From positions 947,691-1,011,690 of the forward strand of contig OY970378.1 in the NCBI GenBank assembly GCA_963718875.1: a stretch of 64,000 nt of DNA, read 5' to 3'. The notes under the pieces were generated by a model that saw only the letters and a program-made list of their open reading frames with translations, was not told the origin of the DNA and did not search any database. Origin of the DNA: Candidatus Parcubacteria bacterium (GTDB lineage: Bacteria; Patescibacteriota; Saccharimonadia; UBA4664; JBIOIQ01). Within the stretch, counting starts at the first letter, position 1; each line of letters opens with the position of its first letter. Below, in pieces: positions 30,634 through 54,477 of this stretch. The position numbers were made by a program, and so were the translations under genes.

Positions 30634-31275
30634 TTGTTTCTCAACCCAGGAGGACTGGCAGAAATGGCTCAGTCACAGGTAACGTCCCAACCCGAAGTAG
30701 ACAGAGGTTTGTGGACCGTACCTAACGCGATCTCCATCCTCCGTCCGATCGCCATCATCCCGGCTCTCATCAAACTGTCGGACTCGATAGACCGCCCAAC
30801 CAGGGCCTGGTGGTCGTTTGTGATTGCCGGTATCATACTGGGTCTTGACGTTGTGGACGGGTGGATCGCTCGTCACTACCACCAAACCAGCCGAATCGGA
30901 AAGCTGATTGACCCAACCGCCGATAAACTTGTCGGCTTCACCTGCCTTGGATTCATGCTGGTAGTTCTCAGCAACAAAGCTGGAACTGGATTTTTCGCTG
31001 CCCTCTTGGGCATCGTAGCCATTCGGCTGGTGCAGGATCTCGTTTCGTTTTTCCTATACGTGCGGGACTGGAAGGCGAACCAAGTCAAGGGATCGAATTT
31101 CCCCGGGAAGGTCAAGACTTGGGCCGAACTGATCGGATCTGCGCTGGGACTCGCCTGGCTGATGAGTAAGGGCTCGGAGCAGGCCAACATCAGCGCGCTG
31201 CTCGTGATAATAGGCTGCTCTATCTCGGCTGGGGCCGCGACAATCAGCCTACGTCGCAAGTTGACTTCGCGTTAG
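30634..31275 (+). CDS. CDP-alcohol phosphatidyltransferase (PgsA-like); GC about 56%
   Basis: DVVDGWIARHYHQTSRIGKLIDPTADK matches D-G-x2-A-R-x8-G-x3-D-x3-D. Confidence 0.75.
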   Translation: MFLNPGGLAEMAQSQVTSQPEVDRGLWTVPNAISILRPIAIIPALIKLSDSIDRPTRAWWSFVIAGIILGLDVVDGWIARHYHQTSRIGKLIDPTADKLVGFTCLGFMLVVLSNKAGTGFFAALLGIVAIRLVQDLVSFFLYVRDWKANQVKGSNFPGKVKTWAELIGSALGLAWLMSKGSEQANISALLVIIGCSISAGAATISLRRKLTSR

Positions 31276-31296
31276 GGGTTGCAAAACAAAGCTCAA

Positions 31297-31335
31297 TAAG
31301 CGGCCCTCCGGAGTTTTCGGAGGGCCGCTTCTCAT
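31297..31335 (+). terminator. Rho-independent terminator (gcggccctccg..cggagggccgc)
   Basis: Perfect 11-bp stem followed by ttctcatt. Confidence 0.55.
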
Positions 31336-31376
31336 TGTGGAGGTTAGGATGACGATAATATGATAGTATGTAAACC

Positions 31377-31850
31377 ATGAAGAAAAGCGCCAAAGCAACG
31401 GTCGTAGGGTTTAGCCTGGTAGGGGTTGTACTAATTATAATGGCCGTTTTTGCACTTCAACCCAAAGCCAAGAACGCTGCTACATCAACATCAACTGATC
31501 AAGGAACAAAAAAAGTGGATACAAATGCTAAATTAGAATCAATTGATGAAGTTGTCGGCACCGGAGCCGAAGCCAAAGTGGACGCAAACATTACTGTAAA
31601 ATACACTGGCAAGTTAGCTGATGGCACAGTATTTGATTCAACCGAAAAACAGGGCGGAACACCCGCAACTTTTCAGCTTTCTCAAGGCAGGCTAATTGAC
31701 GGTTGGGTACAAGGTATTCCCGGTATGAAAGTTGGCGGCAAGCGAAAATTAGTGATTCCTCCGGCGCTTGGTTACGGCGACCGCCCCAATGGCAGCATAC
31801 CGGCCAACTCGACCCTGACGTTCGAGATCGAACTGATCGACGTCAAATAA
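31377..31850 (+). CDS. FKBP-type peptidyl-prolyl cis-trans isomerase with an N-terminal anchor
   Basis: VKYTGKLADGTVFDST...LIDGWVQGIPGMKVGGKRKLVIPPALGYG. Confidence 0.85.
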   Translation: MKKSAKATVVGFSLVGVVLIIMAVFALQPKAKNAATSTSTDQGTKKVDTNAKLESIDEVVGTGAEAKVDANITVKYTGKLADGTVFDSTEKQGGTPATFQLSQGRLIDGWVQGIPGMKVGGKRKLVIPPALGYGDRPNGSIPANSTLTFEIELIDVK

Positions 31851-31988
31851 TTACAAAAAACATTATCTTTTTTCTTTTTTATTTGTAATTTGTTCTAATT
31901 TCGTGAAAAAAGTTTTATAATTCAGGTGACTCTGATTTATTGTCCTTGTTGACCACGTACTTACTCATGAGCCCTTAAGGGGGATAAA

Positions 31989-32294
31989 TTGCCATCGTCA
32001 TTTCGAGGTACCGATATAGGCCTGAGGAGCTCCGATCTCGCCGGTCTTCCTCCCGAAACACCGCTCGTTTTGGTCCGCGGCACCACTAGAGAAGTTGTAT
32101 TGCTCGTCGCAGTGGTGCCGCTTGAGGTAGGCGCATTCAACTCTCCTCGCAACATTGCCATCGTACAGAGGCAAGAAGGGGGCAGAATCGCGCTGCTTCT
32201 CTCGGACTGGCTGGCCGAAGCGACGGAGGGCGTATGGAACTGGAGAGAACAGTACATCGATCGAGTGCCAGCTCAGACATCGATATTCGCATAA
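31989..32294 (+). CDS. Hypothetical protein (TTG start), high-GC
   Basis: aagggggataaattgccTTG; followed by the strong hairpin gggacggtgggcctcaaggcctgccgtccc plus T-run (32318-32365). Confidence 0.3.
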   Translation: MPSSFRGTDIGLRSSDLAGLPPETPLVLVRGTTREVVLLVAVVPLEVGAFNSPRNIAIVQRQEGGRIALLLSDWLAEATEGVWNWREQYIDRVPAQTSIFA

Positions 32295-32387
32295 CCGCGT
32301 ACTTATGCGGATGCCGTCTAATCAAGGGACGGTGGGCCTCAAGGCCTGCCGTCCCTGACGCTTTTTACAAGTTACCTACTTTATTTC

Positions 32388-32431
32388 TGGATCCCCTATC
32401 CGGAGCGCTATGCTTCCGATAGGGGACGACA
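32388..32431. repeat. Family-B element
   Basis: ctggatcccctatccggagcgctatgcttccgataggggacgac. Confidence 0.8.
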
Positions 32432-32444
32432 AAAATGTGTATTT

Positions 32445-32858
32445 TTATGGTAGCAAGTGATGGGTCTGCAAGAAGCGCACCAAGTTAGGATAAAGCTTAG
32501 ATTTAATGACATCGGGGCTAAACCAATCCGAATGTTCTTCGCCACGACGAGTGTATTTTATGGGGCTAGCTAAAAATATTGTTAACGCAATGGCTTCTTT
32601 AGTAATAGGATGGGCGTAACGGAATTCTCCTAGAGACTTTTCAATCCGCACTTCCCAGCCACTCTCCTCCAGGGTTTCGCGAGCGGCAGTTTCCTCAAGC
32701 GTTTCACCAACTTCGGCGTGGCCCTTGGGCAAGCTCCAATAGACATACCGGGAATCTTTCGATAGTAGCATGCGCCCATGAGTGTCAATTACTACGCAGC
32801 CGGCTTTCTTGGTTTCTCCAGCTTCATTTAATACTGGAATTTGTTCTGGATTGGACAA
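32445..32858 (-). CDS. NUDIX hydrolase
   Basis: Nudix box GHAEVGETLEETAARETLEESGW. Confidence 0.85.
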   Translation of the reverse strand: MSNPEQIPVLNEAGETKKAGCVVIDTHGRMLLSKDSRYVYWSLPKGHAEVGETLEETAARETLEESGWEVRIEKSLGEFRYAHPITKEAIALTIFLASPIKYTRRGEEHSDWFSPDVIKSKLYPNLVRFLQTHHLLP

Positions 32859-32926
32859 TTTATGTGCTCAACTTTCAATTATTTTGTGAACATCCAACTG
32901 ATATGACCGTGGTATCTGGTACAACA

Positions 32927-34906
32927 TTACTCGAGTACAGCTTTGATTCTCCGGATACCGGCCGATGAGGCTTCTTCTTTGGTAATTTTGAATTTACCCA
33001 AAGTTCCGGTGTGCTCCACATGCGGCCCCCCGCAGATTTCCTGACTGTACCACTCCCCGACTGGATCGCCAGCAGTGTAAACTTTGACTGTGTCGCCGTA
33101 TTTATGGCCGAATGCCCCCAAGACCCCTCGTTTTAGTGCACCTTGTGTGTCTTCTTCCCTCCAACTCATTGGCCAGTCTTTGGCGATGTTTTCGTTGACG
33201 ATGCGCTCGATTTCTTTGATTTGCTCTGGAGTAACTTTTTCGGGATGGCTAAAATCAAAGCGCAAGCGCTCGGGAGTAATATTGCTACCGCGCTGAGTAA
33301 CGTGATCGCCCAGGACGAGACGCAGGGCTTTGTACATTAGGTGGGTGGCGGTGTGGTATTTGGTGCTCATCTCGCTGTGATCAGCCAAGCCGCCTTTAAA
33401 CTGGCCTTGAGTGGCGGTGCGAGAGCGTTCCTTTTGCTCGGCCATCAATTTATCGAAGTCCGCTTTCCAATTTGGATCAATTTCAACCTTTAAACGATCC
33501 GCTTCTTCAAGGCTCAACTCAAAAGGAAACCCGTAAGTGTCGAATAATTCGAATATAACTTTGCCTGTTATTTTATTGCCTGAGCCTTGCCTGCCGGCAG
33601 GCAGGCTTGTCGAAGGCTCTAAATCGGCGGCGCCCTTCGACTCCGTTATCACTTTGCTCAGGGAATATTTTGGACCCCCGGAGACACGGCGTTCGAATTC
33701 TCTAATCCCCTTCTCCAGCGTTGTGCGAAACTGAGTCTCCTCGCGCATCAGCACATCCATGACTTCGTTCTCGCGTTCTTTGACTTCCGGGTAGGCTTCG
33801 CGATAAATACCGGTGATGACGGGGACGATTTGGTCCATAAAGTCTTCGCGCAGATCTAAGACAAGAGCTTGACGGATGGCGCGGCGAATAAAGCGGCGCA
33901 TCACATATCCCTGAGCAGTGTTGGATGGTACGACTCCGTCGACGGCCAGGAAAGTAGCGGCGCGAAGGTGGTCGGCAATAATACGCATGGCGTTGGTCTG
34001 GTCGGCGTAATCAAAACCGGACAACTCCTGAAGTTTTTCGATGATGGGCCAAAGGACACTAATTTTAAACATATCGGGAGAATTGATGGCTGCGGCGGCG
34101 ATGCGCTCTAACCCGCCACCAAAATCTACGTTTTGACGAGGCAATTCATAGATTCCGCCGTCTTCGCTTTTAAGATATTGCATAAAGACCGAGTTACCGA
34201 TTTCCATGAAACGCCCGCAATCACAGTTAGGATGACAATGCTTGCCCCATTTAGAATCGTGCTCTACTTCATCGAATAGATAGAAAACTTCCGCGCAAGG
34301 ACCGCACGGATCGCCTACTGGCGTGGTTTCAGGACCTTTTTCACCGCGATTCCACCAGTTCTTCTTGGCCTCGTATAAAAAAATGCGCTCGCCATCTTTA
34401 ACGCCGCGCTCATAGCCGTCACCTTCTGATCCGATTTCAGCCACTTGCGGCTCTATGCCCTTCACTTTGTATAGTTTTTTCCAAATTTCAACTGACTCGG
34501 TATCTTGGGGGATATTGTATTTTTTATCACCGATGAAGGCTGTTACATAAAGCTTCTCCGGATTAAGCCCGATCGTATCAGTCAGGAACTCCCAAAACCA
34601 TGGTAACTCCTCGTCTTTAAAATATTCACCAAGACTCCAGTTACCTAGCATTTCGAACAAAGTAGTGTGTCGATTGTCCCCTACTTCGTCAATATCTTCA
34701 GCCCGAAAACAAGGTTGAGAATCAACTAACCTTGTACCCTGAGGATGTTTCTCACCCAGCAGATATGGCACAAGCGGCTGCATGCCTGAACCGGTAAAAA
34801 GAGTGGTGGCGTCTTCGGCCGGCACCAAGTTAGACCGCGGGATAATGGTGTGTCCGCGGTCGGTGAAAAACTGTAAAAATTTGGAACGAATTTCCTCGGT
34901 AGTCAT
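32927..34906 (-). CDS. alaS: Alanyl-tRNA synthetase, short form (659 aa; catalytic, tRNA-recognition and editing domains, no C-Ala/DHHA1 tail), with an in-frame family-C insertion
   Basis: Class-II AlaRS N-terminus (FTGSGMQP..., RAEDIDEVGDNRHTTLFEMLGNWS), editing HxxxH...CGGPH; ends directly after the editing domain. Confidence 0.9.
   Translation of the reverse strand: MTTEEIRSKFLQFFTDRGHTIIPRSNLVPAEDATTLFTGSGMQPLVPYLLGEKHPQGTRLVDSQPCFRAEDIDEVGDNRHTTLFEMLGNWSLGEYFKDEELPWFWEFLTDTIGLNPEKLYVTAFIGDKKYNIPQDTESVEIWKKLYKVKGIEPQVAEIGSEGDGYERGVKDGERIFLYEAKKNWWNRGEKGPETTPVGDPCGPCAEVFYLFDEVEHDSKWGKHCHPNCDCGRFMEIGNSVFMQYLKSEDGGIYELPRQNVDFGGGLERIAAAAINSPDMFKISVLWPIIEKLQELSGFDYADQTNAMRIIADHLRAATFLAVDGVVPSNTAQGYVMRRFIRRAIRQALVLDLREDFMDQIVPVITGIYREAYPEVKERENEVMDVLMREETQFRTTLEKGIREFERRVSGGPKYSLSKVITESKGAADLEPSTSLPAGRQGSGNKITGKVIFELFDTYGFPFELSLEEADRLKVEIDPNWKADFDKLMAEQKERSRTATQGQFKGGLADHSEMSTKYHTATHLMYKALRLVLGDHVTQRGSNITPERLRFDFSHPEKVTPEQIKEIERIVNENIAKDWPMSWREEDTQGALKRGVLGAFGHKYGDTVKVYTAGDPVGEWYSQEICGGPHVEHTGTLGKFKITKEEASSAGIRRIKAVLE
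33580..33650. repeat. Family-C palindromic element inserted in-frame in alaS
   Basis: cctgagccttgcctgccggcaggcaggcttgtcgaaggctc...gcccttcgactccg; encodes the extra AlaRS segment ...SKGAADLEPSTSLPAGRQGSG... Confidence 0.65.
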
Positions 34907-34993
34907 GACGACTATTGTACCCTAGAAAGTGGTTTTTTTGAACCTGTGCGCTCAATACCCAACCTCAAACTGTCATCCTCGATCTGAGCGTCG

Positions 34994-35060
34994 GCTGGAT
35001 TCCCTATCCGGAGCACCAAACTAGGCAATGGTGGAGTTTGGCTACCGATAGGGAATGACG
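34994..35060. repeat. Family-B element (alaS-mnmA intergenic)
   Basis: ctggattccctatccggagcaccaaactaggcaatggtggagtttggctaccgatagggaatgacgg. Confidence 0.8.
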
Positions 35061-35133
35061 GATGTTTGTCTTGTGGCTGACGATTGAATAATCTCATGAG
35101 ACTGCTTTATCGCAAACGCTCTTCGCAGCGACG

Positions 35134-36186
35134 CTAGGCGATAATTCCGCCGCCGACTACGCGTGTGCCATCGTAAATGACGGCTGATTGGCCCGGAGTG
35201 ATGGCGCGGTCGGTGCGATCCATATTAATATGAAATCCGTCATCGCTCTGGGTAAGTTCACAACCAATGAGCGGGGCCCGATAGCGTGTTCTAACATGAT
35301 AGCGCCCAGGATGAGGTGAGCCATTGATCCAATGTTGGTCTGTTATATCAAATTGGTTCGATAGCAAGGTTAGGTCTGATGGGTCGTCGGTAACTGTAAC
35401 GGTGTTCGCCCTCATATTTTTACGGATGACATAAAACGGTTTACCGCCCCCGACGCGTAAGCCATGGCGTTGGCCGATAGTATAAAATATGGCGCCTTCG
35501 TGGGTGCCTAGTGTTTTACCTCTTTTGTCGACAATGTCTCCGGGAAACGTACTAACGTACTGGCGCAAAAAGTCCCGTAATCCAACTTCTCCTACGAAAC
35601 AAAGACCTTGTGAATCTGGCTTGTTGGCCGTCGGCAAGCCAAACTCTTCGGCAAGTTCGCGAATCTTAGGCTTGGTATATTCCCCCACCGGCATAAGAGT
35701 TTTTTGTAATGCGCTAGCCGAAACGCGATGCAGAAAGTAGGTTTGATCTTTGGTCGTGTCGATGGCGGAATGGAGCTCGTCACCATTTAATACTTGTGCG
35801 TAGTGACCGGTGGCAATTTTGTCGGCTCCATCAGCAAAAGCCGCATCCAAAAACAGTTTAAACTTAATTTCTTGGTTACACATAATATCGGGGTTTGGTG
35901 TCCGCCCAGCTTGGTATTCAATAACCATATAATCGACAACTTTTTGCTTATACTGATCTTGAAAGTCATATGTTTTCAAGGGGATGTCTAAAACGGCTGC
36001 CACTGCTTTGGCGCTTGCAAGATCTTCTTTCCAGGGGCACTCAACACCGGCCACATCCTGGGTCCAGTTTTGCATATATACTCCAGTTACATCATAGCTC
36101 TGTTGTTGCAACAAGGCTGCCGCCACAGAGCTATCTACGCCGCCGCTTAAACCAACGAATACTTTTTTGACATCATCTTTGATCAT
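35134..36186 (-). CDS. mnmA: tRNA-specific 2-thiouridylase MnmA
   Basis: VGLSGGVDSSVAA PP-loop; 350 aa. Confidence 0.9.
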   Translation of the reverse strand: MIKDDVKKVFVGLSGGVDSSVAAALLQQQSYDVTGVYMQNWTQDVAGVECPWKEDLASAKAVAAVLDIPLKTYDFQDQYKQKVVDYMVIEYQAGRTPNPDIMCNQEIKFKLFLDAAFADGADKIATGHYAQVLNGDELHSAIDTTKDQTYFLHRVSASALQKTLMPVGEYTKPKIRELAEEFGLPTANKPDSQGLCFVGEVGLRDFLRQYVSTFPGDIVDKRGKTLGTHEGAIFYTIGQRHGLRVGGGKPFYVIRKNMRANTVTVTDDPSDLTLLSNQFDITDQHWINGSPHPGRYHVRTRYRAPLIGCELTQSDDGFHINMDRTDRAITPGQSAVIYDGTRVVGGGIIA

Positions 36187-36236
36187 TACGGAATATTACT
36201 GGGTGAGGGGTTAAATGACAAGCTATTCGTGTTTTG

Positions 36237-36345
36237 CCTGGATCCCCTATCCGGAGCGCTCCTGTCTCGCTTCCGATAGGGGATGACAAGGGGGAGGGGT
36301 TGAACCTAGCTTCCAATAAGGGGCGACAGTGGGGAAGGGTTGGCG
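36237..36345. repeat. Family-B element plus a partial second copy
   Basis: ctggatcccctatccggagcgctcctgtctcgcttccgataggggatgacaaggggg... then cttccaataaggggcgacagtggggaaggg. Confidence 0.8.
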
Positions 36346-36432
36346 CTGACTTTGAAGGAAAAATGTGCCCAGGCATAGAATTGCACACTTTGATGCAGTT
36401 CAAGATGAGACTGATGCCCGATGAATTAATCT

Positions 36433-36554
36433 GGGGCTTGCGCAATTGAATGCAGTTCGAGGAAAGCCGAGCATCGCAAATGAGGCGTACTTAGAGGTAC
36501 GACGAATGCGAAGCGCAGGCCTTGACAATGAAATGCGCCAATTGTGCAAGCCCC
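36433..36554. repeat. Family-E structured element (third copy), closed by the long-range stem ggggcttgcgcaattg / caattgtgcaagcccc
   Basis: Ordered sequence blocks shared with 18015-18198. Confidence 0.6.
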
Positions 36555-37508: not shown

Positions 37509-38098
37509 AATTTTTTCTCAAATAGCATGGTGTAAATAGTTTTTTGCAGCTCCGAAAACGTTAAAGACCGGCTATAATCGGTGGCCCACCAATTTGCTCT
37601 GCGCCAACTTTTATCAGTAGTTGAGTGGTTAAGAACGACGACATCGCGGTCCAGCGCTGCCCGGAAAGCCGTGCTGGCGCGTCTCTGATGGTATGGCGAT
37701 GTAACGAGTATGACCTTATGATAATGGCCCTTCTTAACTAGATTGCTCACGCCGATGGCATTTTGATCCGTATTTATGGACGTCTCATCGAGCATAATTG
37801 CACTTGCCGGAACATTATGGTCTAGGGCAATTTGGCGCATAGCGCGGGCATTAGATGGGCTGTGGGGGTCGAGAGCCGCACCGGAAAAGATGATATGAGG
37901 CGCCCAGCCATCCTGATAAAGTCTTATTGCTTCCAGAGTACGCGAATCCGTTTCTCCACCACTAATGGCAACTATGGCATCACTTTTGGACAGTGAGCTT
38001 TGCGGGGATAAAAAAAACCCCAAACCCAAAAATGCGCTTACCCCTAGAAAAAGTAGACATATAAAAATTCCCAACACGATTTTCGTAGAACGTCTCAC
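37505..38098 (-). CDS. DUF218/SanA-YdcF family protein with an N-terminal anchor
   Basis: DAIVAISGGETDSRTLEAIRLYQDGWAPHIIFSG. Confidence 0.65.
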   Translation of the reverse strand: MRRSTKIVLGIFICLLFLGVSAFLGLGFFLSPQSSLSKSDAIVAISGGETDSRTLEAIRLYQDGWAPHIIFSGAALDPHSPSNARAMRQIALDHNVPASAIMLDETSINTDQNAIGVSNLVKKGHYHKVILVTSPYHQRRASTAFRAALDRDVVVLNHSTTDKSWRRANWWATDYSRSLTFSELQKTIYTMLFEKKL

Positions 38099-38115
38099 GT
38101 AGGTATTGTAGCCAC

Positions 38116-39321: not shown

Positions 39322-39393
39322 GTTAGTGTAATATGCTTTAAGTTCTGTAATGAGTCAAGGACGTACTCGAGACTTGGGGCTAGGAGGTCCTTT

Positions 39394-39696
39394 ATGGGTA
39401 AGGTGCGTATGCTCGCAATTGTCGGGGGTGCGGCAGTAGTTGCCGGAGTTGTGAACCACGAGCTTGGTGACCCGCGTCCACGGCAAAAGGCACACCAGTG
39501 TCTTAGTAAGGCCGATGAGGCGCTTCGGAACGGAAACTCTGATGCAGCCAGGGGAATTGCTGCTGAGCTGAGAGAGTACGTTCGAAGGGTGCAGGGACCA
39601 GACAAGGTCGTTCCCTTCCTTGTCTGGTTGGACATTCGAGCACTGATCATCATCCACCCAGACCGTAACCGACACCGCCGCTGGCTCATACGCTGA
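39394..39696 (+). CDS. Hypothetical small protein, GC about 57%
   Basis: Strong RBS ggggctaggaggtcctttATG; followed by caccaagt...acttggtg plus gtgtttgtgtttttttac (terminator 39728-39770). Confidence 0.45.
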   Translation: MGKVRMLAIVGGAAVVAGVVNHELGDPRPRQKAHQCLSKADEALRNGNSDAARGIAAELREYVRRVQGPDKVVPFLVWLDIRALIIIHPDRNRHRRWLIR

Positions 39697-39869
39697 CCAA
39701 GCCGTGTTTTATCTACATCACCAAGTGCGGCTATTGTGCTGTACTTGGTGGTGTTTGTGTTTTTTTACAAACTTACCTGTTTACCAGCAAGCTTTTTCGA
39801 AATCTTTTAATAAAAATGTGTCGATCTAAGTCTTCTCTGCATCCAAATCCCATCTGTCCCAGGTGCTCT

Positions 39870-39924: not shown

Positions 39925-40596
39925 ATGACAAGACATTCAAAAATTATAAACTTCTCCTTATCGCCCCAACAATATGACGAATTGGATAGCTTAGCCGTTG
40001 CTAGCGGACGTAATCGTAGCGAACTGATGCGGAGTATTATTAGTGCTTCGCTGCAAGGTATGAAACAAAGGGATGTGGGATCGAATACAATTTTTAGAGA
40101 AAATAATGCGGACATAGCTAGTATGTTAAAAGATTTTTGGCTAGCCCGTACTAGCTCGCCTTTAGAAATAAAGGTAGCGGGTTTAATTATTGCCGTTAAC
40201 GATGAGGGTCGGGTTTTAATTGGCAAGCGCCATCAGACCGATCCTAACGTGCCAAACCTGACCTGGTCTTTTCCTGGAAGTCGCTTACAAACTTTGGACT
40301 TTCAGAAAGAGTTAACCAAGAGCTTCCATGAACGCACCGGTTTACATGTAAACATTAATAAAGTAGTAGCTGCTCGTGTAATTCCCGAAAGCGGCCAAAA
40401 CGGCGCACAAGTTGTTGCCTTGTATGCACATGGTCCCGTCCAAGGGAACCAGCACTTTACCGCTCAAGCCCCTTATTCGGAACTCAAGTGGGTCAAGCCT
40501 TTGGATGTATTCAAGTATTTTACAAGCTCAACTACCGACGAAGTCACCGCTTTTTTAAATAGTTTGGACAGCGCTTCAGACTTTGATCCCAAATAA
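39925..40596 (+). CDS. Fusion of a ribbon-helix-helix (CopG/Arc-like) DNA-binding domain with a degenerate Nudix-fold domain
   Basis: N-terminal INFSLSPQQYDELDSLAVASGRNRSELMRSII; the C-terminal Nudix-like fold (GSRLQTLDFQKELTKSFHERTGL) lacks the catalytic REx2EE. Confidence 0.55.
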   Translation: MTRHSKIINFSLSPQQYDELDSLAVASGRNRSELMRSIISASLQGMKQRDVGSNTIFRENNADIASMLKDFWLARTSSPLEIKVAGLIIAVNDEGRVLIGKRHQTDPNVPNLTWSFPGSRLQTLDFQKELTKSFHERTGLHVNINKVVAARVIPESGQNGAQVVALYAHGPVQGNQHFTAQAPYSELKWVKPLDVFKYFTSSTTDEVTAFLNSLDSASDFDPK

Positions 40597-41451
40597 CTCT
40601 GCCGCATTGCGGCTCGTGGCATTCCCGAGAGTATTGAATGATTCCCCTCTTAACTGTGCTAAAAACTCGGCAGTAAATTTAGCATTTGCCGGTTCATTCA
40701 CTTTTCCTCGTCTTGGCACTGGGGTTAAAAACGGGCAGTCTGTTTCTAGTACTAGGTTCTGTAACGGAACAGCTTTTGCAGCTGCCAGCTGTACCTCGTC
40801 CTTGGTAAAAGTCATGATGCCATTAAGCGCTATGAGGAAACCCCGCTCAACAGCTTTTTTCATATTAGCCGTTGTGCTGCTAAAACAGTGTACTATGCCA
40901 CGCAGTCCTGGATACTCGTCCACAATTCTAAAAAAATCATCAAAAGCATCGTCGCCTGTGCCTGCGGCTATCGATGGAGCTGAGGGTCGTACATGCCACA
41001 CCATCGGTTTATTGTACTCCAGGGCAAGTTCAATTTGAATTCGAAAAGCCTGCTCCTGCCATTGGCGGGTGGCAGAAGTCAAACTTTTGATCTTAGTCTG
41101 TGGGTAATCTGGATTTGAAGTCTGACTTTGATCTGGTCGGCCCTTCTCTAGTCGATAATAGTCTAAACCGCACTCACCAATTGCAACCACCTTAGGATAT
41201 GATAATAGCCTCCTAAAGGTTACTGGCCAGGTAGCATTATTTGCAATGCTTGCGTCTTCGGGGTGTAAGCCTACTGTGGCATAAACTTCTTGGTATTTGT
41301 TGGTTACCTCCACAGCTTCAACACTATCAGCCTCGTTCGTGCCCACGTTCACGATTACATTAATGCCAGCAACATGAGCATTCTCTACTACTTCATCAAT
41401 CCGGTTTTTAAGCCCTTCATGGTGCAGATGGGCGTGAGTGTCGATCAACAA
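40576..41451 (-). CDS. tatD: TatD-family metal-dependent DNase, with an in-frame family-A insertion
   Basis: MLIDTHAHL, IGECGLDYY and hydrolase motifs; extra segment KGRPDQSQTSNPDYPQTKIKSLTSA. Confidence 0.85.
   Translation of the reverse strand: MLIDTHAHLHHEGLKNRIDEVVENAHVAGINVIVNVGTNEADSVEAVEVTNKYQEVYATVGLHPEDASIANNATWPVTFRRLLSYPKVVAIGECGLDYYRLEKGRPDQSQTSNPDYPQTKIKSLTSATRQWQEQAFRIQIELALEYNKPMVWHVRPSAPSIAAGTGDDAFDDFFRIVDEYPGLRGIVHCFSSTTANMKKAVERGFLIALNGIMTFTKDEVQLAAAKAVPLQNLVLETDCPFLTPVPRRGKVNEPANAKFTAEFLAQLRGESFNTLGNATSRNAAELFGIKV
41073..41137. repeat. Family-A element inside tatD
   Basis: gaagtcaaacttttgatcttagtctgtgggtaatctggatttgaagtctgactttgatctgg. Confidence 0.8.
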
Positions 41452-44995: not shown

Positions 44996-45008
44996 CCCAG
45001 CCCAACCA

Positions 45009-45066
45009 TGTCATTCCCTATAGGAAGTGCCGCTACTGCGAAACGCTCCTGATAGGGAATCCAGGG
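45009..45066. repeat. Family-B element in inverted orientation
   Basis: tgtcattccctataggaagtgccgctactgcgaaacgctcctgatagggaatccagg. Confidence 0.75.
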
Positions 45067-45165
45067 TAGGTGGTGGTGGTGGTATTTCAGTTCCTGAATC
45101 ATTCTTTAATAATAGCCGTTGTGCTTAAGCGAGGCAAACGAGGATTTGGACGAAATTTATTAAAA

Positions 45166-45215
45166 GAAAAGCCGCCAGGCGCCCGGACCGTGTGTGGTCT
45201 GGCTACCTGGCGGAC
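45166..45215 (-). terminator. Hairpin terminator for the 45240..45638 gene (ccgccagg...cctggcgg, T-run on the minus strand)
   Basis: gccgccaggcgcccggaccgtgtgtggtctggctacctggcgg, preceded on the plus strand by aaaagaaaag. Confidence 0.45.
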
Positions 45216-45239
45216 GTTGAGCTGCAGCACGAGACTCGG

Positions 45240-45638
45240 TCAAGCCGGAACGTTGGGTAGCGTGGCGTTGGCGTATGCCTCGAACGATGAGAAGCTGCGC
45301 GTATTGTCGGCGGGGTCGTACGGGAGCTCCACAATGACATCACGAGTGACGCAGTTGACGTGAACTGTCACGATTGCAATTGTGGAGCCAGCCCCTACTC
45401 GAATGTCAGAGAGTGCACAGACTTTGGACAGCTCCCAAACAAGCAGAGGTATGACTGCCGATGCGTCGATGTCGCTCCGTTGGGCAGCAAGATTGCGCAA
45501 CACTGATGCCGAGCAACGCAGGAACTCGTCCAGACTCGGCGTGTGATGAGCCCGAACATAAAGCATGATTTCGCCTTTTCCAGAAATTGCCCCGGAAACA
45601 ATTACTGCACCGCTGGTACTGGTCACGGCAACCTCCAT
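45240..45638 (-). CDS. Hypothetical protein (132 aa), high-GC islet
   Basis: ORF with a downstream terminator; weak ribosome-binding site. Confidence 0.35.
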   Translation of the reverse strand: MEVAVTSTSGAVIVSGAISGKGEIMLYVRAHHTPSLDEFLRCSASVLRNLAAQRSDIDASAVIPLLVWELSKVCALSDIRVGAGSTIAIVTVHVNCVTRDVIVELPYDPADNTRSFSSFEAYANATLPNVPA

Positions 45639-45736
45639 GTAGGAATGTCACTCAGGTTGAGCTATTAGCTATTATAACACATTTTTAACACTTTGGTCAA
45701 TTTTATCGACCAAGCGATTTTTTTTGATTCTTCCAC

Positions 45737-47885: not shown

Positions 47886-47924
47886 ACTTGAAATAATAAT
47901 AACACTTTTTAAAAGAGGTGTTTT

Positions 47925-48785
47925 TTAATTAACTGTGGGCCGATTATCCGAGTTAGGCCGGTCAAAACGATCTTTGATATTTCCCCCTCCACCCGTATGA
48001 CGGCTGAGCGCACCGGCAGCTTTGAATAATAGTCCAGCCAGGATAATAACAACGCCCAAGACCGCTAAAAGTACTGCTGCTATGCCAAAGTTGTTGGCCA
48101 CCCCAGCCAATACAGATTTGAAAAAACTTATCAATACTGGAATAAGGGGGTTTTCCTTGGCCGTCGATTTTAGAAATGAATCCAGTAAACTGGGTGTGAA
48201 TTTGAATAGTATGAATACCAGCATTTCGGAGAAAGCCGCGCCAAAGCAAATTTTGGCACCCACTTTAAAACGATCCCAGCCTTTATTTATCAGCATTAGC
48301 AGTGTAAGTAACAGCAGTCCAATTACTGGAGCAGCAACTTTTATAAAATTGAGCCAACTAAATAATGTTTTCGCACCTTTGGCTTCTGGAATTGTGATTG
48401 GCTTATCTAGCGGGCTATCTGGTGGCACTTGGAACCCTTGGCGGTTAACTTCTGCGCTCAAGTCCGATAAATCCAAGCTTGGAGCTGGTGCATCGGCGGA
48501 GTAGTGAGCCTGCAAGCTTTCAATTAAAGGGTTGAGTTTGGTTTTAACATAAGTGCTGGAAATTGTATCTGCAAGAGCCTGACGAGCCACTAAGGCCTCG
48601 GGCGTTTCGCCACGCACTAGGCTGTGGGGAAGTGCTTGCGACACAGAATCATAAACCCCCGATGTTTCGGCCTTAGACTCCAAGTAACGGGCGTTTAATA
48701 GGGTGCTTGTAAGGATATAGGCGGAGACTGTGGCTGTAATAGCTAATATTACTACCGAACTAAGTAATTTGTGTAATAATTTCAC
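47925..48785 (-). CDS. Hypothetical multi-pass membrane protein
   Basis: N-terminal signal or anchor and several hydrophobic helices; Gly-rich C-terminus. Confidence 0.45.
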   Translation of the reverse strand: MKLLHKLLSSVVILAITATVSAYILTSTLLNARYLESKAETSGVYDSVSQALPHSLVRGETPEALVARQALADTISSTYVKTKLNPLIESLQAHYSADAPAPSLDLSDLSAEVNRQGFQVPPDSPLDKPITIPEAKGAKTLFSWLNFIKVAAPVIGLLLLTLLMLINKGWDRFKVGAKICFGAAFSEMLVFILFKFTPSLLDSFLKSTAKENPLIPVLISFFKSVLAGVANNFGIAAVLLAVLGVVIILAGLLFKAAGALSRHTGGGGNIKDRFDRPNSDNRPTVN

Positions 48786-48865
48786 TTGGCTATCATAGCG
48801 CTAATGTTTTATGATTGGCAAACTGCGGTTTTAACGCCCCTTCTATCCTTATAGCTTACGTTACT

Positions 48866-49090
48866 CCCTGAGCTTGTCGAAGGGTCGGACCGGCTTTGCC
48901 TCTCTTAGTATGATAACGATGAAAACTTAGGGTTTAAGAGGTGCTGAACAGTAGGAGCGGCCATGCTCCGCGGCGCATCTGGTGACTCAATACTGGCCTT
49001 CCTCTTCAGTATGACGATTAGAATATTTGGTTCAACAAAAGTTGGTGGATCCTGAAATAAATTCAGGATGACAAACAAGGGGGGAGGCGA
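48866..49090. repeat. Repeat cluster: family-C half-site (48866-48888), family-D element (48993-49019), atcctgaa..ttcaggatgacaaacaagggggg element (49049-49090)
   Basis: ccctgagcttgtcgaagggtcgg; ctggccttcctcttcagtatgacgat (compare 58345-58372); compare 3068-3098 and 36286-36300. Confidence 0.65.
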
Positions 49091-49124
49091 TGATGACAGG
49101 AGGGATGTGGAGGGAAGAGTTGGA

Positions 49125-49958
49125 CTAGGTCAGCAATCGCTGTTTCTCGGCCGCGCGGTAAAGTTTTTCCCAATCATTTAAACTCAGCTCCTGTGCGCGA
49201 GCTGTAGGATTGAGCTTGGCCTGAACCAACAGTTGGCCCGTCATATCAACACTGGCATTTAAGCCACCAGCAAGTGCGTTTTTTAATTGCTTGCGCTTTT
49301 CGCTAAAACCAGCTTTTATGAGGCGGAACAGCTTGGTGGTATCGGCTTCAAAAGCTGGTTTAGGGCGTCTTACAATTTGTAAAATGGCTGAATCTACTTT
49401 GGGGGCTGGCCAGAATTTATGGCGCTCTACGACACCAACTAAGCGAGCCTGGGCGTAGTATTGGACTGATAGTGCCAGGATGGAAAGCTGGCCTGGTTTT
49501 GCCACTACCCGGGCAGCCACCTCTTTTTGAACAAGCAGTGACATAACCGTTGGCGGATTGGAGTTTTCGAGCAAAAGACGAAATATTTTTGAGGTTAGAT
49601 AGTATGGTAAATTTGCTACGACTTTATATGACTCCCCCATTTGACTTAAGTCAAAATGCAGGATATCCTCCGACCGAACGTCGAGGTTTGAAGCAGCGTC
49701 TTTTGCCAGTAATTCCGCTAGAGCTCGATCGGCCTCTACTGCCACCACTGACTTGCAAGAACTTGTTAAAAGGTTAGTCATTACGCCTAAGCCCGGTCCT
49801 ATTTCCAGTACCGTGTCATCGGGTTGAAGTTCTGCGGCAGCAACCACAGTCATGAGCGCGTCTTTATCAATTAAAAAATGCTGGCCCAGCCCCTTGTTTG
49901 GTGATATACCGGCCAGCCTCATAGCAATCCGTAAATCTTCGAGCTGACTTAAATCCAT
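49125..49958 (-). CDS. rsmA: 16S rRNA (adenine1518/1519-N6)-dimethyltransferase RsmA/KsgA
   Basis: LEIGPGLGVMTNLL SAM-binding motif. Confidence 0.9.
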   Translation of the reverse strand: MDLSQLEDLRIAMRLAGISPNKGLGQHFLIDKDALMTVVAAAELQPDDTVLEIGPGLGVMTNLLTSSCKSVVAVEADRALAELLAKDAASNLDVRSEDILHFDLSQMGESYKVVANLPYYLTSKIFRLLLENSNPPTVMSLLVQKEVAARVVAKPGQLSILALSVQYYAQARLVGVVERHKFWPAPKVDSAILQIVRRPKPAFEADTTKLFRLIKAGFSEKRKQLKNALAGGLNASVDMTGQLLVQAKLNPTARAQELSLNDWEKLYRAAEKQRLLT

Positions 49959-50001
49959 ATATCAAGTTTACCTTAAACCTGGCGTAAGCTCTAATCTGGG
50001 A

Positions 50002-51114
50002 CTAAATCATTTTACTCCAACAGCTCTTTGAGGCCAACCAGGGTGCTGTAGCGTTTTTTTGTGCTAAACGTCCAGCGGTCGCCTCAATTTGGGCGGGACC
50101 GTCAAAAATCGTACTCATGGGGTGGCCGTAAGATTTCCAAGTAGCTGCACTGTACTGGTAAAGGCCAAAGTGACTGCCGTTGGAAGCGTTGGCATCGCCA
50201 CGCGACTCACAATGCATTATGGCAAGCATCAAATTTGGGTCAACCCCCCACCGGGCCGCAGACTCTAAAACAAATGGGCGCCAGTGCTCAATCGAGCCAG
50301 AAAAAGCTACTTTTGTACCAGCCACCACAATTTGATTTACTGGTTCTTGTTGCCCCGTCACGGCCAAAACTATGCGCGATTTTTCGACTCCATTCTCATA
50401 ATGAATCCGATAGCTTACTTGCCGACGTCCGTTAACTCCAGCGACCTGAACTATTGAAACCCCCTTTGGCTGGTTGGGGTCTGTAACTGTTTTCGAGGTA
50501 AAGGGTATAACTTCGGTCACGTCAACATCGGTGTCAGTCACGCGAGTAATACTAACGGTAATACCATTTACAATCGGCGCGTCTAAGGCCGGTTGAATAG
50601 TATCTTTACTCCCTAGTTGAATGCCCGCGTCTGCTAAAAGCTTACCAACCGATGAGGCATGGCTACGGACGGTGTCTGTTTTGCCGTCGGCGCTTAACGT
50701 GATTGGCGTTGCCCGTTTGATAACTACTTGTTGTCCCACGGCAGGGGCGCTGACAAAGTCTTGGACTCGGCTGGCATCGGCTTCGTCCTCAGGGTAAAGC
50801 TTAATGCCTGCGTCTTCGGCGATCAAACGGGGAGAACGATGGGCGCTGGTAACAAGTTTTGACTGCTCGCCATCTAACACGCGGTAAACTTCTGCACGGT
50901 AGACATTAACGTTAAAAAAGCCATTAGGTAGAGCTGTTTGGGGAGCTGGTTCTACAAGGTCATTAGCCCCTACGCTTATACTAGCGCGGTCTAATACTTC
51001 CTCTACCGTATCGACGTCAGTCGTAACAATGCGAGTGCGGCCGTCTGAAGTAATACTAACAACTTTATGAGTTTCGGCCATGGCCAAATTGCGAACTGGA
51101 ATGTGGTCGGCCAC
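50002..51114 (-). CDS. RpfB/YabE-like cell-wall protein: DUF348 repeats, a G5 domain, and a C-terminal Rpf-type transglycosylase-like domain
   Basis: C-terminal LMLAIMHCESRGDANASNGSHFGLYQYSAATW. Confidence 0.7.
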   Translation of the reverse strand: MADHIPVRNLAMAETHKVVSITSDGRTRIVTTDVDTVEEVLDRASISVGANDLVEPAPQTALPNGFFNVNVYRAEVYRVLDGEQSKLVTSAHRSPRLIAEDAGIKLYPEDEADASRVQDFVSAPAVGQQVVIKRATPITLSADGKTDTVRSHASSVGKLLADAGIQLGSKDTIQPALDAPIVNGITVSITRVTDTDVDVTEVIPFTSKTVTDPNQPKGVSIVQVAGVNGRRQVSYRIHYENGVEKSRIVLAVTGQQEPVNQIVVAGTKVAFSGSIEHWRPFVLESAARWGVDPNLMLAIMHCESRGDANASNGSHFGLYQYSAATWKSYGHPMSTIFDGPAQIEATAGRLAQKNATAPWLASKSCWSKMI

Positions 51115-51377
51115 AAAAGCTGATCCGAGAGTGGCGGCAATTATGCCGCCGACGATTATTAACTTTGCCTTAGTGTTAGCGTGCCTCCAGGCAGCTAATC
51201 GAATCCGAATAAATGTACTTAAAATAGAAGCCTCTATGGTTATCTGTGGGGCTTTTATGTTAAGTTTGTGTTTTTTGACTAGTAAAGTTTAACGTACTTA
51301 TGCTTAAGTACAGTTTTTATTGTATATCGACAGATTTGGTCTGTCAAATTGAGTGAGTTTTATCGCTTATTTTCTTT

Positions 51378-51445
51378 CTGGATTCCCTATCCTGAGCGCC
51401 AAGCTAGGCAATAGTTGAGCTTGTCTTTCCGGTAGGGAATGACAA
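51378..51445. repeat. Family-B element
   Basis: ctggattccctatcctgagcgccaagctaggcaatagttgagcttgtctttccggtagggaatgacaag. Confidence 0.8.
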
Positions 51446-51499
51446 GTAAAGGTTCGGGATTTAAGGCTCAGATTTTGATCATAAACGTTTTCGGGTCTG

Positions 51500-53713
51500 C
51501 TAGTCTAGTTTTTCTATTGGCGCAAAACTGAGACTGAGTTTTTTACTGCCCACACCGGCAAACGCAGCCATAAGCTCATCTCCTGACAAACTTATTACTA
51601 TGCCGTCGCCAAATTTGGCGTGTCGTATGCGGTCACCTGGGCTGAAGTCTTCAGCTGTGAGTTGTGGGTTGTGAGTCAGATCGGACGTCCTACTCGTGAC
51701 TCTTGACTCAGGACTCACTACTGCAGTTTGCAGCTCCGCTGGGATGTCGAGTAAAAACCGCGACGGAGGATTACGCATGGTCGAACCATAAAGAAGACGG
51801 CTGCTGGCGTGAATCAAAAAAAGTTGTTGACGAGCACGAGTCATACCGACATAACAAAGTCGGCGCTCTTCTTCCATTTGGGATGCATCGTATAGACTGC
51901 GACTGTGCGGAAAAATTCCCTCTTCCATGCCGGGCATAAAAATTACCGGAAACTCTAATCCCTTGGCAGAGTGTAGCGTCATGAGTGTTACGGCATTGGT
52001 GTCTGTAGCATAATTGTCGACATCACTAATAAGGGCCACCTCCTCCAAGAAGGTGGCCAGTCCGCCGTTACCAAATTCCTCGGCCACACTTAGCAACTCT
52101 TTGACATTTTCTATTCGATCACCCGCCAGTACTGACCCGTCATCCAGATGTTCCAGGTATCCGCTCTTCTTTATGGTTAGCTCAAGCAGCCCTGCAACGC
52201 TGAGCCTTTCGACTGCCTGTCGCAAGCTGGTTATGAGTTGTCCGAACTGCATAAATGACTGTGTGGCCCGGGGAGTTAGTCCAGGCACGCGGTCTGCTTC
52301 TAGTAGGCTCGTTAAGAGGATGGGTCTAGCTGAGCCAGACAGCCTGGCTTGCTGAAGATGGTCGAGAATGGTGGCAATGCTTTTGGCGCCTAAACCACGC
52401 GGCGGCAAGTTGACGATTCGTTCAAAACTGACTGTATCTTCAGGTTGATAAATAAAGCGCAGGTAGGCCAAAGCGTCTTTGATCTCTTTGCGCTCATAGA
52501 AGCGCACCCCTCCAACAATCTTGTATGGCACCTGTGCCCTTAAAAACTGCTCTTCCAGAGCGCGTGATTGGGCGTTAGTGCGATACAACACTGCAAAATC
52601 CTTGTAAGAGCTTACTGCTGGCGAGGCTTGCGAATCAAGACCAGGTATTGAAGACGGTCTTAAAACCTGGTCTTTTATTCGGTTGACAATTAGTTCACCC
52701 TCTTGAATTTCGTTATAAGCCTGCTCCACGCTTATGGAAGCACCAGCTGAATGCTCCGTCCAGAGTTCTTTGTGACTGCGCTGAATGTTTTTACTTATAA
52801 CACTGTGGGCGGCATCCAAGATGTTTTTGGTGGAACGATAATTTTGCTCCAGTTTAATAATGTTTGCCTTGGGATAATCTTTTTCAAAATCCAAGATATT
52901 CTTAAAATTAGCCCCTCGCCAACTATAAATACTTTGCCAATCGTCACCAACTACGCAGATGTTTTGATGGGCAGCGGCGAGTAGCTTAACTAATTGATAC
53001 TGCGCATGGTTAGTGTCTTGGTATTCATCAATCATGATGTAACGAAATTGCTGCTGATACTTTTCAAGCATTGGTTGGTGCTTACGAAACATTGTGACGG
53101 TACTCATAATAATGTCGTCAAAATCGAGTGCGCCGGCTTGGTTGAGCAGGCTTTGATAAAGTGGGTAGACTTTGGCGGCGATATTTTGAGCTTGCCCAGA
53201 AGCCAGCTCTGCATAAGCGATGGGGCCAATAAGCTCATTCTTGGCGCTGGAAATGAGGTTTGCGATTAGGCTCGGTGGAAACTGCTTTTCGTCAATGCCG
53301 AGCTGACGATAAGCCTGCTTGATGACGGCTAGCGAGTCGCCCATATCAAAAATGACAAAGTTGCTGGCTACGCCCGCTTGGGTAGCTTCCCGACGTAAAA
53401 GCCGAACACAAATGGAGTGAAATGTACCCATGAAGGGCAGATACCCACGGTCAAGACCAGGTCTTGTGGTTTCAAGACCTGGTCTTAATAAACTCAATAC
53501 GCGTTCGCGCATTTCACCAGCAGCTTTATTAGTAAAAGTTACCGCCAAAATGTTGGTTGGGGGTATATGCTTTTGTGATACCAGGTAGGCAATGCGGTGA
53601 GTTAGTGCCTTGGTCTTACCGCTACCGGCACCAGCTAGCATTAATACGGGGCCCTCTGTAGTCTGAACAGCCGCTTTTTGTTGAGGATTTAGGTCTGCTA
53701 ACAAATTGTTCAT
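51500..53713 (-). CDS. ATP-dependent DNA helicase UvrD/PcrA family
   Basis: LAGAGSGKT Walker A; 737 aa; C-terminal Tudor-like HAKFGDGIV. Confidence 0.9.
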   Translation of the reverse strand: MNNLLADLNPQQKAAVQTTEGPVLMLAGAGSGKTKALTHRIAYLVSQKHIPPTNILAVTFTNKAAGEMRERVLSLLRPGLETTRPGLDRGYLPFMGTFHSICVRLLRREATQAGVASNFVIFDMGDSLAVIKQAYRQLGIDEKQFPPSLIANLISSAKNELIGPIAYAELASGQAQNIAAKVYPLYQSLLNQAGALDFDDIIMSTVTMFRKHQPMLEKYQQQFRYIMIDEYQDTNHAQYQLVKLLAAAHQNICVVGDDWQSIYSWRGANFKNILDFEKDYPKANIIKLEQNYRSTKNILDAAHSVISKNIQRSHKELWTEHSAGASISVEQAYNEIQEGELIVNRIKDQVLRPSSIPGLDSQASPAVSSYKDFAVLYRTNAQSRALEEQFLRAQVPYKIVGGVRFYERKEIKDALAYLRFIYQPEDTVSFERIVNLPPRGLGAKSIATILDHLQQARLSGSARPILLTSLLEADRVPGLTPRATQSFMQFGQLITSLRQAVERLSVAGLLELTIKKSGYLEHLDDGSVLAGDRIENVKELLSVAEEFGNGGLATFLEEVALISDVDNYATDTNAVTLMTLHSAKGLEFPVIFMPGMEEGIFPHSRSLYDASQMEEERRLCYVGMTRARQQLFLIHASSRLLYGSTMRNPPSRFLLDIPAELQTAVVSPESRVTSRTSDLTHNPQLTAEDFSPGDRIRHAKFGDGIVISLSGDELMAAFAGVGSKKLSLSFAPIEKLD

Positions 53714-53729
53714 ACCATAAATTCGAAAC

Positions 53730-53750
53730 CTTGAGCGTAGTCGAAGGGTT
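53730..53750. repeat. Family-C half-site (cttgagcgtagtcgaaggg)
   Basis: Matches cctgagcgtagtcgaagg (the reverse complement of 761-778). Confidence 0.5.
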
Positions 53751-53883
53751 GAGGATTAAGTTCAGCTAATAAAACGGTCATTTGTCTATTGTACGTTGCC
53801 AAGCAAAGGAGAGGAAGGCTTGACAATAGACGAAAGAGGCAGTTCAATAAAGTTGACTCATTCGCTAGCGAGGGAAGTTACGT

Positions 53884-54216
53884 ATGTCTAGAGTAGTAGC
53901 ACCACCTGCCCACAGAGTCATTGACGTATCGTCTGATACAGACGCTGAGGGATGGGACCTTCTGGATACAGAGGACCACCCTCTACCCCGCTGGGCCACC
54001 ATCTTCGCAGCAGTTAGGGACAGGGGCCCTCTGGTATTCCGGTACAGGAGGATCGCGGATGGAACCGAAGGCTTCGAAGAGCTGTTCCTCTGGGACATCA
54101 AGCTGGATGGGAACGTCCTTGGAGGGGTCAACTCGGATCGCACTCGTAGGGTCACCATGCTGCTAGGAGTCAACGGCATTCCGGTATCCATCCAGTTCAG
54201 GCCGAACCTCGCCTGA
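53884..54216 (+). CDS. Hypothetical protein (110 aa), GC about 60%
   Basis: gagggaagttacgtATG ribosome-binding site; terminator ccccggtaacgggg plus ctcacgtttttt at 54258-54293. Confidence 0.4.
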   Translation: MSRVVAPPAHRVIDVSSDTDAEGWDLLDTEDHPLPRWATIFAAVRDRGPLVFRYRRIADGTEGFEELFLWDIKLDGNVLGGVNSDRTRRVTMLLGVNGIPVSIQFRPNLA

Positions 54217-54291
54217 TCTTTCCTCCATACTCTGCCCCGTTCGCCGACTCCACGCATCAGGCGTGAACCCCGGTAACGGGGCTCACGTTTT

Positions 54292-54477
54292 TTAATATCT
54301 AGAGATATCGATTGACTTAGTCGACTTAGGCGAGGGCTTATCGGTAGTTTTTCTTAAATTAACGGTTCCTGGCGGCCGCTTTGCAGCTTTTTTCTTAGCG
54401 ACAAGAGTACCGCAACCCAGGCACATGTGGCCGGGTTTTGCCAGGACCATTGGATTTTGACAATCGGGGCAGTTCAT
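54292..54477 (-). CDS. Small zinc-ribbon protein (CxxC...CxxC) with a Lys-rich tail
   Basis: MNCPDCQNPMVLAKPGHMCLGCGTL. Confidence 0.4.
   Translation of the reverse strand: MNCPDCQNPMVLAKPGHMCLGCGTLVAKKKAAKRPPGTVNLRKTTDKPSPKSTKSIDISRY

Follow-up and report, generated by a model that had tools for sequence, protein, structure and literature searches.

Hotspots of horizontal gene transfer (HGT) in bacterial chromosomes often carry no mobile elements and diversify by recombination at the core genes that border them, above all in species capable of transformation (Oliveira, Touchon, Rocha et al. 2017, PMC5635113). Phage morons are single open reading frames (ORFs) with their own promoter and terminator, the composition of which is unlike that of their neighbours (PMC4378225). 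Saccharibacteria are naturally competent (PMC10633639, PMC10187176). Here, a stretch of 64,000 nt from contig OY970378.1 (termed the window; GC 48.95% over its whole length), which belongs to a small epibiont-type Saccharimonadia genome of the candidate phyla radiation (CPR; approximately 1.19 Mb), was analyzed for six small GC-rich units scattered among its housekeeping genes. The backbone is a minus-strand run of such genes, comprising LeuRS, Ddl, a Mur ligase, Obg, an FtsA-like protein, GMP synthase (GMPS), AlaRS, MnmA, an IscS-like aminotransferase, TatD, MetRS, UvrD/PcrA, TIM, PGK and pyruvate kinase. In fixed slots between these core operons is located a compositionally distinct, apparently terminator-insulated compartment that occupies approximately 20% of the window. 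The positions and orientation of the slots are conserved among relatives, whereas turnover or divergence of what they hold is so rapid that the majority of the contents are ORFans. We attach a probability of roughly one half to the explanation that the units are autonomous and moron-like, and that the conserved slots are hot spots where genes turn over and diverge quickly. The result locates the variable genes of a streamlined 1.19-Mb epibiont genome and reveals no new kind of element.

Relatives identified by a scan with AlaRS and by contig look-ups were all Saccharimonadia or Patescibacteria. Four of these are close, with a GC of approximately 0.49-0.51, near that of the window, namely L153, L151, L155 and a contig from JGI; the last is known as a gene list alone, which leaves four genomes with DNA, the window included. 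More distant relatives, the AlaRS of which is 65-73% identical, have a genome-wide GC of 56-61%. Collinearity with L153 spans 23.4-46.8 kb of the window, genes on the opposite strand included. Across this region, identity to L153 is 71% for FKBP (31377-31850, +), 58% for an RHH protein (39925-40596, +), 44% for an ECF sigma factor (27422-28234, +; GC 0.561), 38% for a CDP-alcohol phosphatidyltransferase (CDP-OH) and 33% for a 151-aa ORF (28370-28825, +). The sigma factor and the 151-aa ORF belong to the same class as the six units, each with its own hairpin terminator, and hold their position in both L153 and L151, yet their sequences are divergent or discordant. The sigma factor is 71% identical to that of L151, whereas FtsA, MnmA, FKBP, GMPS and IscS are closer to L153, a discordance which suggests lateral exchange of alleles.

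One of the slots lies between IscS and TatD. In the window it holds a 100-aa ORF (39394..39696, +; GC 0.574) with an N-terminal hydrophobic segment and no database homologue, preceded by GGAGG 6 nt before its ATG and followed by a terminator-like hairpin of 17 pairs with a T-run (39715..39766, +; dG -29 kcal/mol, the unit of all folding energies below). The same slot contains a 112-aa ORF in L153 (GC 0.543, hairpin -35) and a 121-aa ORF in L155 (GC 0.557, hairpin -17). All three ORFs lie on the opposite strand, BLAST detected no similarity among them, and their GC hairpins are unrelated in sequence. In Smith-Waterman comparison the L155 ORF showed no similarity to the other two (z about 0). 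The slot between AlaRS and FKBP is occupied in the window by a NUDIX gene and a 101-aa ORF (31989..32294, +; GC 0.562, TTG start, predicted small beta-rich fold), the latter followed by a terminator-like hairpin of 14 pairs, 10 of them GC, with a T-run (32325..32366, +; dG about -30). Three ORFs of 53, 115 and 110 aa fill it in L151, at a GC of 0.54-0.60 and with terminators of about -30. L153 carries one short ORF and a hairpin there and the JGI contig an ORF of 64 aa; L155 is empty at this place. At the slot's head, a TATAAT is unchanged across the three aligned genomes, and L151 and L153 have a TTGAC -35 box in common as well. The unit at 45240-45638 is absent from L153, the closest collinear relative, where a 228-bp AT-rich spacer takes the place of 742 bp in the window; at slot A, the DNA alignment with L153 was too diverged to set insertion boundaries.

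These sites thus lie between collinear conserved core genes, differ in content between relatives and have an atypical composition, as HGT hotspots do; CDP-OH, present in all genomes, departs from the pattern of differing content. The resemblance extends to the small number of core-flanked variable intervals, their high turnover, the transformable lineage and the lack of recognisable mobile elements in the slots. Unlike described hotspots, the units of the window are tiny (0.3-0.8 kb, one gene) and GC-richer rather than AT-richer than the genome; the comparison spans relatives at the level of genus or family and not strains, and here we infer the recombination at the flanks. The first-pass annotation of this DNA had proposed repeated piecemeal insertion of foreign segments into intergenic gaps, a view at odds with the recurrence of one architecture, a small GC-rich ORF with a hairpin, in the matching slots of L151, L153 and L155. 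Its idea of piecemeal gain survives in part, given that slot content varies, the 45240 unit is missing from L153, the ECF sigma factor is discordant with most core genes, the units are self-contained and the composition differs, and falls where CDP-OH proves to be old and no donor can be named. Two further insertions were observed in L151: CvpA and MnmA are separated there by a Y1 transposase of the IS200/IS605 type (8290-8877), and MetRS and TatD by a block of trehalose-phosphate synthase and phosphatase (1084-3923); therefore, other backbone slots take insertions too.

Composition was evaluated against a native reference of 18 genes (GC 0.477; GC at third codon positions, GC3, 0.456), from which length-matched in-frame windows were drawn as the null. 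The candidate ORFs have a GC of 0.534-0.574 (z = 2.0-3.7) and a GC3 of 0.56-0.68 (z = 2.1-5.5), so that both values exceed native sequence significantly for every ORF that had been listed as GC-rich. After normalisation for GC, the six small units deviate in dinucleotide signature as well, with delta* = 138 from native DNA versus 42 +/- 14 in size-matched native samples (z = 7), and the larger islets do likewise (z = 7.6). The islet signature is somewhat closer to high-GC Saccharimonadia (delta* 68-113) than to native DNA (76-138). The tendency of such genes towards the plus strand, also noted at first pass, is borne out: 14 of the 22 genes with GC >= 0.53 are on the plus strand versus 8/45 others (Fisher odds ratio, OR, 8.1, p = 3e-4). 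So is the association with hairpins and T-runs said to be rare behind native genes. With a hairpin plus T-run of dG <= -15 kcal/mol after the gene as the criterion, terminators follow 14/19 high-GC genes versus 7/45 others (OR 15, p = 1.4e-5), a comparison to be read with the reservation that native genes are mostly internal to operons and that GC-rich DNA by itself gives stronger hairpins. Restricted to the ends of transcription units, the counts are 11/16 and 6/28 (OR 8, p = 0.003). All six listed units end in this way, at -28 to -33 kcal/mol, and the hairpins have the form of intrinsic (Rho-independent) terminators, namely a GC-rich stem-loop at a gene's 3' end with a U-tract directly behind it. 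The association is not explained by strand alone, because the low-GC plus-strand FKBP and RHH genes have no strong terminators.

The remaining units share this design. What had been read as a single gene at 7145-7851 is two plus-strand ORFs with one base in common. ORF 7145..7597 encodes a 150-aa multi-pass hydrophobic protein (GC 0.534, GC3 0.61) with no family or homologue; ORF 7597..7851, whose GTG start overlaps the previous stop, encodes 84 aa with two hydrophobic segments and no homologue (GC 0.549, GC3 0.68). A sigma-70-like promoter match, TTGACT-17-CATAAT (10/12 of the consensus), is found at 7068..7096 (+), approximately 49 nt upstream, and the terminator-like element at 7863..7913 (+; dG -32.9) is a GC-rich stem-loop, CCGGTCCGGCGGC...GCTGCCGGACCG, with a T-run behind it. 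The unit on the minus strand consists of a 132-aa ORF without homologue (45240..45638; GC 0.554), given as 128 aa in the database, where its entry (P0010) starts 4 codons further downstream. Behind it stands the terminator-like hairpin GCCGCCAGG...CCTGGCGG with a T-run (45162..45214, -; dG -30.6), and approximately 33 nt upstream of its ATG at 45638 the best promoter match of the region, TTGACC-18-TG-TATAAT (45671..45700, -; 11/12). Finally, a 110-aa ORF with no homologue or family (53884..54216, +; GC 0.574, GC3 0.64) ends in two short GC hairpins and a T6 run of terminator-like form (54251..54293, +; dG -28), convergent with a 61-aa ORF at 54292-54477. The ORFs and hairpins are thus located where the first-pass annotation had placed them, with three corrections, to the gene at 7145-7851 and to the starts of CDP-OH and of 45240-45638. 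Taken together, the sequence supports units that are self-contained, in which a Shine-Dalgarno sequence precedes the ORF and a terminator follows it, and for three of them a consensus promoter match (7145, 45638 and the conserved TATAAT of 31989) from which they could be expressed.

By sequence, these units have exactly the anatomy of phage morons, one ORF with its own terminator, some with a promoter match, and atypical composition; the 45240 unit, in addition, is inserted between genes that are adjacent in L153. In contrast to morons, they sit in a chromosome among GMP synthase, AlaRS, IscS, TatD and UvrD, and a scan with PHROGs found no phage protein families in or beside them. Integron gene cassettes offer a poorer comparison: no integrase domain was found among the scanned proteins of the window (no dedicated attC model was run), and the hairpins are followed by T-runs and mutually unrelated in sequence. 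Bacterial ORFans are said, in work by Daubin and Ochman from 2004, to be short, fast-evolving and usually AT-rich. The genes of the units are likewise short, lineage-restricted, fast-evolving and homologue-free, but their GC exceeds that of the host genome, the reverse of the usual bias. As genome variability goes this is of an ordinary kind; its one unusual feature is compositional, in that the bias runs towards a GC near that of the wider clade.

The CDP-OH gene differs from the other units in its history. Its plus-strand ORF encodes 203 aa (30664..31275; GC 0.559, GC3 0.67) and is followed by the terminator-like hairpin GCGGCCCTCCGGAGTTTTCGGAGGGCCGC with a T-rich tail (31300..31337, +; dG about -27 to -29). 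ATG at 30664 is a likelier start than TTG at 30634, since it agrees with the database entry of 203 aa and with where the homologue has its N-terminus. The protein scores 77.4 bits against Pfam PF01066 (gathering cut-off 22), and the motif DxxDGxxARx8GxxxDxxxD is intact in its translation, DVVDGWIARHYHQTSRIGKLIDPTAD. In five genomes the gene lies between GMP synthase and FKBP with its orientation kept, at a pairwise identity of 25-60% where AlaRS is 70-79% identical, and a strong terminator stands behind it in each. Where DNA is available, in four genomes, its GC3 is 0.67, 0.66, 0.68 and 0.67, against a native GC3 of 0.46-0.54. Matches in the homologue search were limited to the syntenic Saccharimonadia genes, and a metagenome scan with the CDP-OH alignment returned distant family members alone (30-47% identity). 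The gene, named at first pass as an example of an acquired insertion, is therefore not recent, being syntenic in five genomes and elevated in GC3 in every one with DNA. If inherited from the common ancestor, it cannot still be ameliorating, because synonymous sites are saturated at such divergence. Its GC3 is either maintained or repeatedly re-imported from a similar pool; as a long-term resident, and as such an exception within the class, it must have its high GC3 actively maintained. Among 16 orthologue pairs, identity to L153 was not correlated with GC3. The persistence of high GC3 in a syntenic, fast-diverging gene is the most interesting point, and CDP-OH provides a concrete test case for repeated import versus maintained compositional bias.

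Searches for homologues of the six small ORFs were carried out on a large scale. A word-indexed search of 5.8 billion clusters with the six as one concatenated query gave no match, and exhaustive HMMER against 1.84 billion representatives recovered the ORFs themselves and a single homologue, P0011, of ORF 31989. Five of the six small ORFs are thus without homologue among 15 billion proteins. The sole source of P0011 is a soil metagenome run, SRR5580765, and P0011 itself was absent from contig records, the metagenome scan and the viral scan, so that it comes with no genomic context. Pfam, PHROGs and PADLOC gave no match for the ORFans. Taxonomic assignment by best hits, by which the foreign origin was to be checked, accordingly did not bear that origin out: no donor could be assigned to five ORFs that have no homologue at all, and CDP-OH matched syntenic Saccharimonadia genes alone. 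Since the exhaustive search returned no donor sequence, recent transfer from a sampled lineage is excluded. Neither tRNA targets nor flanking direct repeats, as signatures of mobility, were found beside the six units.

It is highly improbable that the small ORFs are chance open frames in GC-rich non-coding segments, such as decayed remnants or structured RNAs with a terminator at their end. Such a reading draws on ORF length, which given the GC is not significant for ORFs of approximately 100 codons (p = 0.07-0.38), on antisense frames that are open too in these regions, and on a single-sequence AlphaFold model of ORF 53884-54216 with a pLDDT of 39. It is opposed by codon-position GC periodicity, significant in 5/7 ORFs, and by purine at codon position 1, at 0.59-0.64 in all seven. 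Shine-Dalgarno-like sequences at proper distance precede most of the small ORFs, that of 45240-45638 being weak, and the coding status of this ORF is the least certain. ORF 31989 is a real gene with a TTG start, because its full-length homologue, 52% identical, has the same N-terminus. Its AlphaFold model (pLDDT 61) predicts a small beta-rich fold of moderate confidence, for which Foldseek found nothing in PDB at E <= 0.001, the top match being an eIF5A-like small beta barrel (E = 0.25). Structured RNA was considered and rejected, as an Rfam scan of the window found two tRNAs alone and nothing at the small-ORF regions, and the folding energies of the ORF bodies do not surpass those of shuffled sequence (z = -1.5 to +0.3). 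For CPR annotation, GC-rich ORFans beside strong terminators are probably real lineage-specific genes rather than noise.

If the units do turn over in hot slots, their replacement, gain and loss would likely proceed via recombination in the conserved core genes on either side, with exogenous DNA entering by natural competence from a gene pool GC-richer than the genome, for which the wider clade, at 56-61% GC, is a candidate. The terminators would shield the oppositely oriented housekeeping operons from read-through, and for this reason terminated units alone would persist. Several results weigh against this explanation. The dinucleotide distance of the islets to the high-GC relatives is still large, no donor lineage could be assigned to any small ORF by best hits even with exhaustive HMMER, and the surroundings of the six units showed neither mobility genes, integrases and transposases included, nor phage genes, nor flanking duplications of a target. 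Smith-Waterman comparison of the IscS/TatD-slot ORFs from the window and L153 gave a marginal signal (z = 3.0, p = 0.017), and some apparent replacements may reflect extreme divergence of one ancestral gene. A GC3 of 0.66-0.68 for CDP-OH in four genomes fits four independent imports poorly and a maintained native property better. The comparison with relatives, moreover, covers the IscS/TatD slot, the 45240 slot and the AlaRS-GMPS region, with 7145-7851 and 53884-54216 outside it.

The main rival is that the units are instead a native, vertically inherited and very fast-evolving class of positional orthologues, diverged past recognition, with their raised GC, GC3 above all, upheld by an ongoing process such as GC-biased gene conversion at slots prone to recombination or selection on codon or mRNA composition. 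The first-pass annotation had itself named a native, compositionally distinct class as its alternative; the pattern is indeed a property of the lineage, and we regard strict vertical descent as unlikely for the class as a whole. The data on CDP-OH favour it for that gene, which is syntenic in five genomes at 25-60% identity against 70-79% for AlaRS, with GC3 pinned at 0.66-0.68 where native GC3 is 0.46-0.54. ORFs of the same slot agree in strand and size (100, 112 and 121 aa), the window and L153 members of the IscS/TatD pair have their marginal similarity, and the TATAAT is conserved upstream of variable ORFs in the AlaRS/FKBP slot. Vertical descent is harder to reconcile with the outright absence of the 45240 unit from L153, with a range of 0 to 3 ORFs per slot, with the discordance of the ECF sigma factor with core genes, with the L155 ORF that is unlike the other two, and with the lack of correlation between identity and GC3 in the 16 orthologue pairs. 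The opposite extreme is the reading at first pass, repeated insertion of foreign high-GC DNA, terminator included, into intergenic gaps. Taken as recent insertion of unrelated DNA into this particular genome, with Actinobacteria hosts or their phages as candidate donors, it appears a little less likely still. The composition difference is significant, cultivated Saccharibacteria live on Actinobacteria (PMC10633639), and elsewhere in the window there are an aldolase (GC 0.66, GC3 0.87) and a WhiB-domain protein with mycobacteriophage matches. Against this stand an architecture and several genes common, slot by slot, to four relatives, a GC of 0.55-0.57 in the small ORFs, far under typical actinobacterial values, and the lack of mobility genes, of target duplications and, for any small ORF, of actinobacterial, phage (PHROGs), plasmid or defence-system homologues.

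A further possibility, speculative and on present evidence improbable, combines elements of the foregoing: exchange, or divergence into ORFans, at recombination hot spots of a competent epibiont, where a force like GC-biased conversion pins GC3 at approximately 0.67 irrespective of the GC of the genome. GC-biased gene conversion reportedly acts in bacteria, as Lassalle and colleagues are said to have described in 2015. As a candidate cause, it would account for stably raised GC3 in recombination-prone genes such as CDP-OH. The positional orthologues would then possibly be host-interaction or envelope proteins. If true, biased conversion would here have left a footprint that can be seen directly, and CPR genomes would have a hypervariable compartment of their own.

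Two families of repeats were observed in the window. The first is a unit of approximately 70 nt with two palindromic GAAGTCnGACTTC boxes, intergenic at 241-310, 792-860, 7966-8037 and 8604-8706 and in frame within the genes for TatD (41086-41131) and Obg (15362-15385 and 16025-16099). TatD has a 24-aa insertion, RPDQSQTSNPDYPQTKIKSLTSAT, that is not in the TatD of four relatives, and Obg has similar peptides between its Pfam domains; in this the repeat resembles the Rickettsia palindromic elements. The second is a hairpin, CTGGATyCCCTATCCGGAGC ... GCTTCCGATAGGGrAyGAC, at 15248-15343, 26514-26587, 32387-32432, 34995-35061, 36238-36329, 45016-45064 and 51378-51445, in most cases 20-330 nt upstream of the start of a minus-strand gene. 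Having no T-run, it does not qualify as a canonical terminator and could be REP-like or regulatory. Repeats had been put forward as markers of insertion sites. Of these seven hairpin loci, three adjoin islets, three lie between native genes and one is inside Obg; without specific association with the units, the repeat families were rejected in that role.

Several other features of the window deserve mention. The class-I fructose-bisphosphate aldolase (60801-61829, -) is by far its most deviant gene and is located near the native TIM, PGK and pyruvate kinase genes, with a bidirectional hairpin in common with the neighbouring exonuclease gene. It is likely a horizontally acquired metabolic gene, and tblastn against plasmids gave matches of approximately 55% to Proteobacteria and Cyanobacteria alone, uninformative on the donor. 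The WhiB-domain protein has 221 aa (62998-63663, -). The WhiB family is typical of Actinobacteria and their phages. In the phage database the protein matched mycobacteriophage WhiB genes, over 42-63 residues, and one unclassified phage, and its gene is located between direct repeats of 52 nt, 85% identical (62958-63009 and 63678-63729), in which the terminator hairpin is contained. A second copy of the 3' end of tRNA-Ala(GGC) lies at a distance of 84 nt (12223-12242 and 12307-12326), and a 104-nt tandem duplication, 98% identical, lies beside tRNA-Ala(CGC) (14286-14519); these may be att-site remnants of integrative elements.

The cumulative GC skew reaches its minimum at approximately 16000-17500, being negative over 1-16 kb and mostly positive after, with minus-strand genes on both sides, and this point could be a replication origin or terminus. 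DnaA was not found in the window; in another relative, L154, its gene is a few genes away, between homologues of 23374-24867 and of 20836-21258 (RuvX). Within the 840-aa LeuRS (1360-3882, -), a NUDIX match (E = 1.7e-6, 28.5 bits versus a cut-off of 21.1) covers residues 442-544, beyond the editing domain, and would be an unusual insertion if real. The segment 21291-23371 is a 2.1-kb insertion relative to three further genomes (L001, L013 and L156), where the neighbouring genes adjoin. It contains two small plus-strand ORFs and a 433-aa ATPase with weak matches to AAA_23/AAA_21 and of the AriA/PbeC-like type, and may be a defence-type islet.

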